From IMG/VR virus record IMGVR_UViG_3300047471_000949: DNA of 57,059 bases; one strand, 5' to 3'. Source of the DNA: a virus (taxonomy: Duplodnaviria; Heunggongvirae; Uroviricota; Caudoviricetes). The notes under the pieces are model-generated. The model saw nothing but the letters and a program-made list of their open reading frames with translations, searched no databases and was not told where the DNA came from. This document shows positions 11,393-38,439 of the stretch, in pieces. Position numbers and translations under genes: made by a program. The stretch's first letter is position 1; each line of letters opens with the position of its first letter.

Positions 11393-11817
11393 AATATAAA
11401 ACAACCCTACAACAACGTGAAAAATCACGAAAATCGCGATTAAAGAGGTGGTGTGATCCGATCAAACGAGAAGCAGATCGAGTTTATCAACAAAAATATC
11501 GTAAACAAAATAAAGAACAAATAGCAATTATTCAAGCAAAAAGACAAAAACTATTAGCAATCGAAATAAGACTACAACGAAAAGGATTAGACCCTGATAA
11601 GTTTGCAAATACAGTTCGCGCACATTGCGGATTATGTGATTTATGTGGTCGAGAACCAAACGGAAAATGGAAATCACTTACTATAGACCATTGTCATAAA
11701 ACTGGTAAATTTCGAGGTATGCTTTGTGATTCGTGTAATAGAGGATTGGGTTTTTTTCTTGAAAGTGCCGAATTATTAAAAAAGGCTGTTTATTATTTAG
11801 AAGGCGATTGTCAATGA
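11383..11817 (+). CDS. Endonuclease VII-family (HNH-like) free-standing homing endonuclease
   Basis: CDLC...IDHCHKTGKFRGMLCDSCNRGLG signature. Confidence 0.85.
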   Translation: MSVEYKTTLQQREKSRKSRLKRWCDPIKREADRVYQQKYRKQNKEQIAIIQAKRQKLLAIEIRLQRKGLDPDKFANTVRAHCGLCDLCGREPNGKWKSLTIDHCHKTGKFRGMLCDSCNRGLGFFLESAELLKKAVYYLEGDCQ

Positions 11818-13001
11818 CTTATCTCGCAAACAATTATTATTCTTATCCAATCTCGATAGAATACGGCACGGGATCGTATATTTACGATGATAATGGTAAG
11901 GAATATATCGATATGTTTGCTGGTTTCGGCTCAGTAAGTCTTGGCCATGGCCATCCTCGTATTTTGAAAGCGTTATGTTCCCAGGCCCAACAACTGGCTG
12001 TTAATTCTCGAATTTTTCGTAATTCTAATCTCGAAGAACTAGCTAAGCGGTTATGTGACTTGACTGGACTACCAAAGTTTCTACCAATGAATACTGGAGC
12101 AGAGGCGGTTGAAACTGCAATTAAGGCGGCTCGTCGCTGGGGCTATAAAAATAAAGCAGAGACCTCTCCAAGTATTATTGTTGCTGAAAATAACTTCCAC
12201 GGCCGAACAACAACTATTGTTGGTTTCTCAAGCGAACCTAAGTGTCACGAGGGTTTTGGTCCATTTGATAATGGCTTTATAAAGTTTCCGTTTGGTGATA
12301 TAGAATCACTAACACTTTGGTTGGCCAACAAATATATTCCCCAAAGAGAAAATGTTATTGCTATTCTTGTTGAACCCATTCAAGGCGAGGCCGGAGTTAT
12401 TATTCCTCCGGATGACTATCTGAGACAGCTACGAGCGCTCTGTAATACACATAATGTTCTGTTAATTTTTGATGAAATACAATCAGGAATGGGACGAACT
12501 GGAAAATGGTGGGCATGTAATCACGAAAACGTGATCCCAGATATTATGATTGTCGGGAAAGCGTTGGGCGGAGGGATGCTTCCTATCTCCGGTATTCTTG
12601 CGACTAACGAGGTTATGGGAGTATTCGAGCCAGGTTCGCATGGTTCAACCTTCGGAGGAAACCCTTTGGCTGCTGCTGTTGCCCTCGAAACCTTGAAAGT
12701 ATATGATGATGAGGGTATTGTTGAAAAATCACGGCTTAAAGGACATATTTTAGCCGAATGGTTACAACACCTCAATCAAATCCCAATCGTCAAGGCGACA
12801 CGTTGTCGAGGACTATGGGGAGGCATTCAGCTTCAACAACAACCATATCCATTTTACTACTGTGAGAAGTTGTTAGAAGCAGGAGTTGCGACAGTAACAG
12901 CCAAGAACGATACTATTCGATTATCACCGGCCTTGAATATTAAACCTGGTATACTAGACAAGGCATTAGATAAAATTGAGAAAGTTCTAAAACGAGAATG
13001 A
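11814..13001 (+). CDS. rocD: Ornithine aminotransferase (class III PLP aminotransferase)
   Basis: MNTGAEAVETAIKAARRWGY, NNFHGRT, EPIQGEAG, DEIQSGMGRTG, GKALGGG, PGSHGSTFGGNPLA. Confidence 0.88.
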   Translation: MTYLANNYYSYPISIEYGTGSYIYDDNGKEYIDMFAGFGSVSLGHGHPRILKALCSQAQQLAVNSRIFRNSNLEELAKRLCDLTGLPKFLPMNTGAEAVETAIKAARRWGYKNKAETSPSIIVAENNFHGRTTTIVGFSSEPKCHEGFGPFDNGFIKFPFGDIESLTLWLANKYIPQRENVIAILVEPIQGEAGVIIPPDDYLRQLRALCNTHNVLLIFDEIQSGMGRTGKWWACNHENVIPDIMIVGKALGGGMLPISGILATNEVMGVFEPGSHGSTFGGNPLAAAVALETLKVYDDEGIVEKSRLKGHILAEWLQHLNQIPIVKATRCRGLWGGIQLQQQPYPFYYCEKLLEAGVATVTAKNDTIRLSPALNIKPGILDKALDKIEKVLKRE

Positions 13002-13192
13002 TTGAGAAAATAAACCAATATGGTAAATATATTTATTATGATTGTTCGATGTGGCGACCTTACTTTGCCTGGAAACCAATGAAAGCCCATAATAAACTCG
13101 TATGGTTACGCTGGCTATGGAAAAGACATATAACTTATGGCAGGCCAGAACTGAAGACTGAATATATACCGATGGTAAAGGAAAAGAAATGA
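12998..13192 (+). CDS. Hypothetical protein
   Basis: WRPYFAWKP...VWLRW motif common in phage small proteins. Confidence 0.6.
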   Translation: MIEKINQYGKYIYYDCSMWRPYFAWKPMKAHNKLVWLRWLWKRHITYGRPELKTEYIPMVKEKK

Positions 13193-13425
13193 GCCTACAA
13201 CTATCTGACCTCTTCCAATCTCGCGGCCGATGTTTTAATTATCGTGAAAGGCTTGGTGATCAACAAAAACTAGTCGATCGTCTTCGTCAGTTTCCGGAGC
13301 TTACATCTTTTGCAAACGAACTTCAAGAATTTTGCGATCAGCATATTGCTTCTATGACTTACTTGGATTATATTCTTGCTGATATCACAAAGTCGTGTAG
13401 TGAAAAGAATATTACTATAGACTGA
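13189..13425 (+). CDS. Hypothetical protein
   Basis: ATGA overlap. Confidence 0.5.
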   Translation: MSLQLSDLFQSRGRCFNYRERLGDQQKLVDRLRQFPELTSFANELQEFCDQHIASMTYLDYILADITKSCSEKNITID

Positions 13426-13455
13426 CTGAGTTCTTCCTGGCGATAAATATCTTGC

Positions 13456-13478
13456 GGCTTCCTGGTTCATAGGAAGCC
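13456..13478 (+). terminator. Hairpin, probable terminator upstream of nrdJ
   Basis: GGCTTCCT-ggttcat-AGGAAGCC followed by a T-rich tract. Confidence 0.5.
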
Positions 13479-13527
13479 ATTTCGTTTATAATACCCCATA
13501 ACCTTACTTCAAGAGGACACCACAACT

Positions 13528-37066: not shown

Positions 37067-37139
37067 AGCAGGGAGGATTGGTATCCCGCGAGGTCTCATA
37101 AGCCACGTCACGAGTGTTCGATTCACTCCTCTGCCACCA
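37067..37139 (+). tRNA. tRNA-Met(CAT), initiator-like
   Basis: A1xC72 mismatch; loop CTCATAA; short D-arm; ACCA. Confidence 0.75.
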
Positions 37140-37172
37140 CTATTAGGGTAAGGAAAACGAAAGGAGTAAATT

Positions 37173-37442
37173 ATGTTCCATATCTTTGTATTATTAACCA
37201 CGTTAATTGTATCTCCTGTTGGGCCTGCTGGCACACAGTTTGGCGCCCTACAATACCAAGCCAAAGCTTTTCCAACAGCCGAATCATGTCAACAATTCTT
37301 GGATAGTCCAGTATTTGCTGCCGATAAAGAATCTGGTCATGCCTATGTTGAAAATCAATTAAAGGAAGAGTTTAAAGGTCAGCTCAAGTATGATTATATT
37401 TGTTCGGACAAGGCGCTGCAAGAATTTACACCAAAAGAATAA
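37173..37442 (+). CDS. Secreted hypothetical protein
   Basis: AGGAG RBS; signal peptide; Cys pair. Confidence 0.65.
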   Translation: MFHIFVLLTTLIVSPVGPAGTQFGALQYQAKAFPTAESCQQFLDSPVFAADKESGHAYVENQLKEEFKGQLKYDYICSDKALQEFTPKE

Positions 37443-37524
37443 CTTGGTACTGCTCGTTTGTCACCTGAAGACATAGGATAGAGCAGCTAAGAGAAAGTAT
37501 GTGAAACTGCCAAGTTTTAATAAT

Positions 37525-37598
37525 GCGGGCTAAGGATTACGATAGTCTCTCGCGTTGCCAACGCGATGGCGCGGGTTTAACTCCCGCAGCCCGCACCA
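37525..37598 (+). tRNA. tRNA-Gly(GCC), A73
   Basis: TCGCG-ttgccaa-CGCGA; GCGGGCT/AGCCCGC-ACCA. Confidence 0.85.
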
Positions 37599-37611
37599 AT
37601 AAGGATATATT

Positions 37612-38439
37612 ATGCAACCTACCTTCCTAATGGTCCGACCAGAATACTTCCGAGTTGATTATTCAATAAATCCTTGGATGCACCCGGATGAATGGAAACT
37701 AGATTATAGCCAGCTAGCACAACAACAATGGAACCAGCTAAAAGGTAAAATAGAAGATGCTGGAGGAAAAGTTATAGTAGAACACGGCCAACCAGACTGT
37801 CCTGATATGTGTTTTGTCGCTAATGCTGGTGTTGTTCTTGATAATAAAGCGTTAGCATCATCGTTTGTACATCCTGAAAGACAAACCGAAGAAGCACGAT
37901 GGTATCGTATCTTTTATAAATCACTGTTTATAGACAACGTATATTTTACGGCTTATTATGGGAGATATATTCCATTCGAGGGAGCTGGAGACTGTTTATG
38001 GGATTCCACCAGAAAAACATTTTGGTTAGGCCACGGAATTCGGAGTGATATTGAGGCAACCGCTGAAGTTATTAAGGCCTTTCACAAACCAGTTAAACCT
38101 TTACAATTGATCGATCCCCGTTTTTATCATCTCGATATGGCGATGTGTATTCTGCCGCACGGCGAGATACTAAATAATCCTGAAGCATTTGATACCGATT
38201 CACGCAAAATCTTATCTTTACAAGAAAACATTTTCGTTTCCGAAGCCGACGCTTTGGCGTTTGCCTGCAATTTAGTAGCAGTTAATGATAGTTTGATCGT
38301 CAATAATGGTATATCCGAGGAATTGTTTAACGAACTGACTGTGCGAGGTTATACTGTTATACAAACCGATTTTTCAGCCTTTATAAAAGCGGGAGGAGCC
38401 GCCTCTTGTCTAACCCTTAGATTGGATAATAAATCATGA
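37612..38439 (+). CDS. Amidinotransferase/pentein-family hydrolase (arginine dihydrolase ArgZ-N / DDAH-like)
   Basis: FLMVRPEYFRVDYSINPWM, PDMCFVANAG, FEGAGD, PRFYHLD, FIKAGGAASCLTL. Confidence 0.88.
   Translation: MQPTFLMVRPEYFRVDYSINPWMHPDEWKLDYSQLAQQQWNQLKGKIEDAGGKVIVEHGQPDCPDMCFVANAGVVLDNKALASSFVHPERQTEEARWYRIFYKSLFIDNVYFTAYYGRYIPFEGAGDCLWDSTRKTFWLGHGIRSDIEATAEVIKAFHKPVKPLQLIDPRFYHLDMAMCILPHGEILNNPEAFDTDSRKILSLQENIFVSEADALAFACNLVAVNDSLIVNNGISEELFNELTVRGYTVIQTDFSAFIKAGGAASCLTLRLDNKS

Follow-up and report, generated by a model that had tools for sequence, protein, structure and literature searches.

Here we analysed a 57,059-nucleotide stretch of DNA (hereafter, the window) from the IMG/VR virus record IMGVR_UViG_3300047471_000949, focusing on two of its genes: one encodes an ornithine δ-aminotransferase (OAT) of the rocD type, and the other a stand-alone pentein resembling the N-terminal domain of the cyanobacterial enzyme ArgZ and the Mycobacterium tuberculosis protein Rv2323c. 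Comparison with bacterial and viral sequences makes it probable that this phage carries both enzymes of a bacterial OAT–pentein (rocD–Rv2323c type) arginine catabolic operon, with which it would mobilise arginine nitrogen. A two-step arginine route had been proposed in a first-pass annotation of the window, where it was tied to unusual arginine tRNAs. The pairing of the two genes gained support from bacterial operons, from phage-like contigs and from the clade in which the pentein falls, whereas the tie to the Arg tRNAs found no support.

In the first step of the proposed pathway, the pentein would act hydrolytically on the guanidino group of L-arginine, with L-ornithine, CO2 and two NH3 as products, which is reportedly the reaction of the N-terminal domain of ArgZ and AgrE. 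In the second step, judging from its family membership, OAT would move the δ-amino group of ornithine to 2-oxoglutarate, yielding glutamate and glutamate-5-semialdehyde/pyrroline-5-carboxylate (P5C), which host enzymes would then turn into proline or glutamate. The four nitrogens of arginine would in this way be freed as ammonia and glutamate during infection. Most plausibly, they would feed nucleotide and protein synthesis, since the module lies in a block with ThyX thymidylate synthase and ribonucleotide reductase genes, both here and in relatives.

The source genome (184,965 bp, 43% GC, rated complete by CheckV) codes for a T4-type major head protein, a portal, a tail sheath, a large terminase and a family-B DNA polymerase. 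Cultured phages have head proteins no more than 54% identical to this one, the nearest being Stenotrophomonas phage DLP_6, T4-like cyanophages and Pelagibacter phage Mosig, and a megablast search with 20 kb of the window gave no match among cultured phages. Given its T4-type genes and the divergence of its head protein, the phage is a distant T4-superfamily myovirus of 185 kb. OAT and the pentein are each encoded once in the genome, and OAT is its only class-III aminotransferase. The window is the reverse strand of genome positions 29285–86343; a direct string comparison with the reverse complement of G000:C1:29285-86343 returned "not identical", which masked bases or a small offset may explain.

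Family membership and active sites of the two enzymes

In agreement with its earlier description as a rocD-type aminotransferase, the gene at 11814–13001 encodes a full-length class-III (fold type I) enzyme, which scored 384.5 bits against Pfam PF00202 (residues 5–392). Its top NCBIfam model was TIGR01885 (ornithine–oxo-acid transaminase), whose cut-off it passed (425.5 versus 378.4 bits); the narrower model NF003145 was not reached (420.6 versus 656 bits). Models for acetylornithine, succinylornithine, putrescine and γ-aminobutyrate (GABA) transaminases all gave scores lower than that of TIGR01885 and under their own cut-offs. The solved structures matching the protein at E values of 1e-92 to 1e-107 are bacterial, Plasmodium and human OATs, including 5viu (1.8e-107), the Bacillus anthracis enzyme (3ruy, 2e-100) and human OAT (6e-92).

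Residues were read by alignment to human OAT, with their roles taken from PMC13327489. The Schiff-base lysine is kept (K249, human Lys292), as are the residues assigned to pyridoxal 5′-phosphate, the cofactor (PLP; D220, Q223, F128, G95 and T279, corresponding to Asp263, Gln266, Phe177, Gly142 and Thr322) and to the substrate (Y8, R131, E192 and R369, corresponding to Tyr55, Arg180, Glu235 and Arg413). The sole departure among the PLP and substrate residues compared is Phe38 (window 11925–11927) at the position of human Tyr85. This position is occupied by Tyr in 118 of 121 homologues, and by Phe only in the window OAT and its nearest relatives, P0121 and P0122. Phage-like OATs share the motif M-x-A-G-[FY] at this site, where the OATs of bacterial operons have M-M-S-A-Y.

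The gene at 37612–38439 had been described as encoding an amidinotransferase-family hydrolase with a YxINPWM signature; it encodes a pentein in which this signature reads Y17-S-I-N-P-W-M23. Over residues 5–271 the protein matched the structures of ArgZ Sll1336 (6jv0, 7e-54) and AgrE Alr4995 (6lrf, 7.5e-53), and it scored 44.4 bits against Pfam PF19420, above the gathering score of 23. Seven residues (D65, N71, E123, R144, H173, D175 and C266) are invariant across 18 stand-alone homologues, their ArgZ equivalents being D65, N71, E118, R139, H168, D170 and C264. Among the latter, Cys264, His168 and Glu118, together with Asn71, reportedly have catalytic roles in ArgZ (Zhuang et al, 2020), their numbering being derived here from the PDB chains. 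Comparison of the 6juz and 6jv0 chains revealed an Asn-to-Ser change at the Asn71 position. The phage protein has no ornithine-cyclodeaminase-like C-domain, as the open reading frame (ORF) ends at 275 aa and the gene for an FkbM-family methyltransferase comes next.

Pairing of the two genes in bacteria and related phages

Among the bacterial pentein loci examined (the 80 best of at least 598), 18 have an OAT gene 58–166 nt upstream on the same strand, and the encoded OATs are 44–51% identical to the phage enzyme. Such loci were found in Xanthobacteraceae, Hyphomicrobiales, Rhodospirillales, Burkholderiaceae, Collimonas, Methylocella, Nitrospirillum and other taxa. When the search was anchored on OAT, a pentein gene lay 63–336 nt downstream in 43 of the 80 closest metagenomic loci. 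These OAT-then-pentein operons, two examples of which are preceded by an AsnC/Lrp-type regulator, bear out the earlier remark that ddaH-like and rocD genes are neighbours in some bacteria. In M. tuberculosis, for which no arginase is known, Rv2323c lies within an arginine-induced rocD–rocE cluster and is required for growth on arginine, as well as for the passage of arginine carbon into proline, glutamate and aspartate and for much of the nitrogen flow (PMC4569260).

Single-sequence scans of IMG/VR with either protein gave no match, and matches were obtained with alignment queries; for the pentein, these came from at least 114 contigs, of which 80 were kept for locus analysis. In a tree of 164 pentein rows (a quick tree with Shimodaira–Hasegawa-like approximate likelihood ratio test (SH-aLRT) supports, not bootstrapped), the window pentein and a 61%-identical metagenomic relative fell within a 21-row clade (SH-aLRT 96), 14 of whose 19 bacterial members are linked to OAT. 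This clade is separate both from the cyanobacterial fused forms and from a large, mostly viral group that contains 70 of the 80 IMG/VR penteins.

A search of 5.8 billion proteins returned, as the four nearest OATs (55–76% identity), sequences whose contigs are all low in GC, tightly packed and phage-like. Gene order is ThyX–OAT–pentein, contiguous, in L177; ThyX–191 aa–OAT–87 aa–pentein in L176; and nucleoside deoxyribosyltransferase (Nuc_deoxyrib_tr)–ThyX (Thy1)–OAT–91 aa–pentein in P0124. Apart from the 191-aa gene just mentioned, ThyX lies directly upstream of OAT, and it is 57% (L177) and 63% (L176) identical to that of the window. The OATs of the phage-like contigs and of the window form one clade (SH-aLRT 100, with the caveat of shared composition), and the two available pentein fragments of these contigs are closest to the same OAT-operon clade that holds the window pentein. 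A metagenome scan with OAT returned bacterial, high-GC OAT–pentein operons and no further phage-like contigs.

One JGI sample contains both an OAT of 76% identity and the 61%-identical pentein, on contigs that each follow the gene order of the window, so that a close relative appears to have the same split layout. Because the pair is contiguous in related phage-like contigs and the pentein falls inside the operon clade, the 25-kb split looks derived. The simplest history would be that the phage lineage captured a bacterial OAT–pentein operon beside thyX, and that the pentein, still next to OAT in related phages, later moved in this lineage to a tRNA island 25 kb away.

Penteins of other viruses and alternative readings

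Several observations weigh against a phage-borne OAT–pentein pathway. OAT was found above cut-off in none of the 78 other pentein-bearing viral records, and a class-III aminotransferase is absent from the pentein-carrying Xanthomonas phage phiXF1 and Ralstonia phage RsoM2USA; most phage penteins therefore seem to work without a phage OAT. With an OAT alignment as query, only three contigs were found in IMG/VR (44–48% identity, two of the matches lying at contig ends), and in none of the three is there a pentein near OAT. In the window itself, the two genes are 24.6 kb apart and apparently belong to different transcription units. Neither a P5C reductase nor an aldehyde dehydrogenase was found encoded in the phage genome, and the product of the pathway must therefore go to host enzymes. 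In addition, the Phe that replaces Tyr85 could alter the specificity of OAT, as in the human enzyme the Y85I substitution changes specificity and makes the Km for ornithine about 100-fold higher (PMC13327489). Finally, the pentein scored below the curated cut-offs of the arginine dihydrolase model NF052232, its best NCBIfam match (233.1 versus 450 bits), and of NF045659, a M. tuberculosis-type "DDAH" (dimethylarginine dimethylaminohydrolase) model (190.3 versus 300 bits). On these scores the exact reaction is not fixed by sequence, and it could be that of a dihydrolase, of a deiminase or DDAH-like enzyme, or of an amidinotransferase.

The rarity of OAT beside viral penteins would agree with the view, which we consider unlikely, that the pentein is useful alone and that OAT was acquired independently for a role of its own. 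A lone pentein could free ammonia or shift arginine and ornithine pools, perhaps as part of the PrkA–YeaH–SpoVR starvation module, whose operon directly adjoins the pentein in 9 of the 80 viral loci and whose PrkA is encoded in 25 of the 78 pentein-bearing records. A lone OAT could serve, for example, proline/glutamate balance or, since its catalysis is described as reversible (PMC13327489), make ornithine for polyamines by the reverse reaction; the 25 kb between the two genes would also suit this view. It is nevertheless at odds with the position of the window pentein in the OAT-operon clade and not in the common viral clade, with the presence of a pentein zero or one genes downstream of the nearest phage-like OATs, and with a related phage population that carries both genes.

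The link between penteins and PrkA deserves attention in its own right. PrkA is encoded in at least 449 IMG/VR contigs, and a pentein is present in 4 of 49 PrkA-bearing records; RsoM2USA has both. The PrkA/YeaG of the window is 54% identical to the YeaG/PrkA proteins of Enterobacter phage LAU1 and RsoM2USA. E. coli yeaG is described as NtrC-activated and needed to survive sustained nitrogen starvation (PMC4664914; bioRxiv 10.1101/254623). The association of PrkA with penteins fits a role in nitrogen economy, as an association only.

Nine of the 80 IMG/VR loci contain a different arrangement, an operon of aldehyde dehydrogenase (ALDH), in some cases a SET gene, pentein and class-III aminotransferase, followed by a UDP-glucose-dehydrogenase-like gene. 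The aminotransferase belongs to the lysine-6-transaminase family (TIGR03251, 478 bits versus a cut-off of 520.8), and the penteins of these operons form a clade of their own (SH-aLRT 100). On this evidence the ALDH operon is a second, separate coupling of a pentein to an ω-aminotransferase, with the predicted semialdehyde-to-acid step included, and it may specify a three-step catabolic route for guanidino amino acids. In one of these loci (L050), a rIIB homologue lies 9 kb upstream of the operon, and a class I fructose-bisphosphate aldolase gene is also found upstream. Five other viral records with a pentein yielded no T4-type major capsid protein and no Terminase_6N; their viral status rests on IMG/VR and, in the case of L050, on the rIIB gene.

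Taken more broadly, ArgZ-like stand-alone penteins might form a widespread and hitherto undescribed class of phage auxiliary metabolic genes (at least 114 IMG/VR contigs) that mobilise host arginine nitrogen, and that were repeatedly and independently combined with OAT, with a LAT-like aminotransferase plus aldehyde dehydrogenase and, often, with the PrkA/YeaG–YeaH–SpoVR operon. We offer this generalisation tentatively, as a possibility that at present we doubt more than we believe. If it were true, large phages would actively rewire the nitrogen-starvation physiology of their hosts.

With regard to the reaction of the pentein, the DDAH equivalog models of NCBIfam gave scores far under their cut-offs (56 bits for NF045660 and 32 bits for NF045658). 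Given the scores under the curated cut-offs and the missing cyclodeaminase-like C-domain, we treat the pentein as a protein that probably works like the ArgZ N-domain, and not as an equivalog. It is quite unlikely, in our view, that the protein is instead a citrulline-making DDAH or deiminase, or an amidinotransferase with some other acceptor. This might be a sugar or nucleic-acid precursor, which the FkbM-family methyltransferase would then methylate. The overlap of the pentein stop with the FkbM start and a heptose-type sugar cluster 4 kb upstream of the pentein lend this idea some support, as does the fact that the broad Pfam DDAH model is the only one whose threshold the pentein passes, its score for arginine dihydrolase being under the cut-off; Hampel et al pointed to possible amidinotransferase chemistry in mycobacteria. 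However, none of the 80 viral loci has an FkbM homologue less than 10 kb from the pentein, and no such gene was noted in the bacterial operons. ArgZ and AgrE score best among the characterised relatives, and every aligned catalytic residue, Asn71 among them, is kept. The conserved bacterial partner, moreover, consumes ornithine, so that ornithine has to be the product. Since an amidinotransferase would form ornithine too, it is compatible with the proposed pathway.

Gene context, arginine tRNA-like RNAs and comparison with known systems

The main features discussed are collected in Table 1. OAT sits within a nucleotide-metabolism block, together with ThyX and ribonucleotide reductase, and its start codon (ATG, 11814) overlaps the stop of the upstream endonuclease VII gene (ATGA). 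The latter has no match in L176 or L177, which suggests a homing-endonuclease insertion. The ThyX–HNH–OAT block ends at a terminator-like hairpin (13456–13478), promoter and terminator calls being consensus matches only.

Table 1. Positions of the genes and operons considered, in window coordinates unless a contig is named.
Feature	Position	Strand	Support or remark
ThyX thymidylate synthase	10334..11392	+	also upstream of the OAT(–pentein) module in related phage-like contigs, as a conserved neighbour
Endonuclease VII/HNH-type gene between ThyX and OAT	11383..11817	+	PF02945, 66.3 bits
Ornithine δ-aminotransferase (rocD type), 395 aa	11814..13001 (ORF 11808/11814-13001)	+	PF00202, TIGR01885, PDB matches
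Class II (B12) ribonucleotide reductase	13528..15456	+	tblastn, 57–59% identity to phage NrdJ genes
tRNA-Gly	37525..37598	+	ARAGORN and Rfam; CCA end 13 nt before pentein start
Stand-alone pentein, ArgZ N-domain/Rv2323c type, 275 aa; putative arginine dihydrolase	37612..38439	+	PDB matches, active-site residues
FkbM-family methyltransferase	38436..39251	+	PF05050, 69.7 bits; TIGR01444, 98.5 bits
PrkA/YeaG kinase, YeaH, SpoVR/YcgB operon	49342..53938	+	possible associated module; PHROG and tblastn matches
ALDH–SET–pentein–aminotransferase operon	L050:8116-12830		also in L045, L049, L069, L073, L077, L078, L080 and L081

At the second locus, the 13-nt leader between the tRNA-Gly and the pentein contains an AAGGA Shine–Dalgarno sequence 8 nt upstream of the ATG. 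The FkbM start overlaps the pentein stop (ATGA), and the FkbM stop in turn overlaps the first bases of a tRNA-Phe (39245–39319). In the contig of the 61%-identical relative, a downstream gene overlaps its pentein in the same manner. FkbM coupling as a general feature of penteins was rejected on the count of 80 viral loci given above, and since none of them has a homologue nearby, this neighbour is specific to the present lineage. The pentein–FkbM pair is wedged in a tRNA array (37525–39319), which implies a tRNA–mRNA co-transcript in need of processing; from 35701 to 40200, the + strand showed no terminator-like site. Further downstream lie a tRNA missed by ARAGORN (39323–39396, 37.2 bits, anticodon reading CUC for Glu) and, directly after it, a compact bacterial type-A RNase P RNA (39403–39690, 288 nt; Rfam 148.7 bits).

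ARAGORN predicted 27 tRNAs in the whole genome, none of them for Arg. The first-pass annotation had counted five Arg-anticodon RNAs, all non-canonical, and this description stands for four of them. The elements at 40011, 40095, 41749 and 41835 (spanning 40011–40178 and 41749–41911) each possess an acceptor stem and a T arm, end in CCA and lack the D arm, and their anticodon loops read GCG, UCG, UCU and CCU; the fifth (17682–17753) was folded only. ARAGORN misses or misreads such D-armless Arg RNAs. Similar CCA-ended RNAs recur in large viral contigs (L179:1418-1579, L180:1501-1580, L266:1501-1582 and L268:1501-1580). The class has a conserved GUAAYUGGA mini-hairpin region, and all eight aligned examples carry an Arg anticodon (GCG, UCG, UCU, CCU or ACG).

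A covariance model built from the four RNAs gave 80–104 bits for these RNAs themselves and 25–32 bits for ordinary tRNAs. With this model, the class was detected in 3 of 50 pentein-bearing viral records (G010, G011 and G024; 38–40 bits, matching architecture, anticodons ACG or UCG) and, among the 49 PrkA-bearing records scanned, in 3 of the 45 without a pentein (G079, G103 and G104; anticodon UCU in G079 and G104) and in 1 of the 4 with one. These records are fragments, and the sampling was not corrected for phylogeny. The frequencies are equal in the two groups, at about 6–7%, so we see no association between pentein and RNA class. The four anticodons together cover all six Arg codons, all six codons are in use, and Arg makes up 4.5% of the predicted phage proteome. 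For these reasons, and given the equal frequencies, the D-armless RNAs appear to be a normal decoding set of unusual build.

The earlier suggestion of an arginine-centred takeover, in which arginine catabolism, non-canonical Arg tRNAs and AGA-containing leaders would be parts of one strategy, was therefore not borne out, and we regard it as highly improbable. It drew on the facts that the Arg-anticodon RNAs of the genome are D-armless, with no canonical tRNA-Arg, and that the pentein is physically embedded in a tRNA array. Against it stand the equal occurrence of the RNA class in records with and without a pentein, the ordinary full set of anticodons and the ordinary Arg usage, together with one 185-kb record that has the RNAs and neither pentein nor OAT.

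Returning to the OAT–pentein pathway, arginine is the most nitrogen-rich amino acid, and a phage-borne pathway turning it into ammonia and glutamate would supplement the host nitrogen supply for nucleotides and protein. The comparative data provide a concrete case, with a conserved phage ThyX–OAT–pentein module, an independent three-gene version and a recurrent PrkA link. The same data support the idea that the little-characterised rocD-linked "DDAH-like" proteins found in many bacteria, Rv2323c among them, are the source of ornithine in an arginine pathway that does without arginase. The two phage enzymes clearly belong to known families, and what is new is their setting, a phage-borne and vertically inherited OAT–pentein module. 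In the searchable literature we found neither a phage OAT nor an ArgZ-like pentein described as an auxiliary metabolic gene, which does not prove novelty.

The closest known counterpart is the bacterial rocD–pentein cluster, represented by Rv2319c–rocD–rocE–Rv2323c in M. tuberculosis and by operons of Alpha- and Betaproteobacteria. The two protein families are the same, the phage pentein falls within the operon clade, and the phage OAT is 50–56% identical to the operon OATs. In contrast to the adjacent bacterial genes, those of the phage are 25 kb apart and have neither the AsnC/Lrp regulator nor the RocE transporter, the OAT has Phe for Tyr85, and the pentein is only about 40–45% identical. 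In the cyanobacterial arginine dihydrolase/ornithine cyclodeaminases ArgZ (Sll1336) and AgrE (Alr4995), the N-domain aligns with phage pentein residues 5–271 and the active site is kept. However, these are fused proteins of about 705–730 aa, whereas the phage pentein is a stand-alone protein of 275 aa from a different clade, and the ornithine that the fused enzymes pass to a cyclodeaminase would go to an aminotransferase in the phage. The ALDH–SET–pentein–aminotransferase operon of another phage lineage likewise combines a pentein of the same family (NF052232, 238 bits) with a class-III ω-aminotransferase, but its pentein belongs to another clade, its aminotransferase is of the lysine-6-transaminase family and not an OAT, and the aldehyde dehydrogenase makes it a three-step system. 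Finally, the arrangement resembles that of phage auxiliary metabolic genes for nutrient mobilisation, in that a host-derived metabolic pair is found among the nucleotide-metabolism genes of a large, lytic-type phage.

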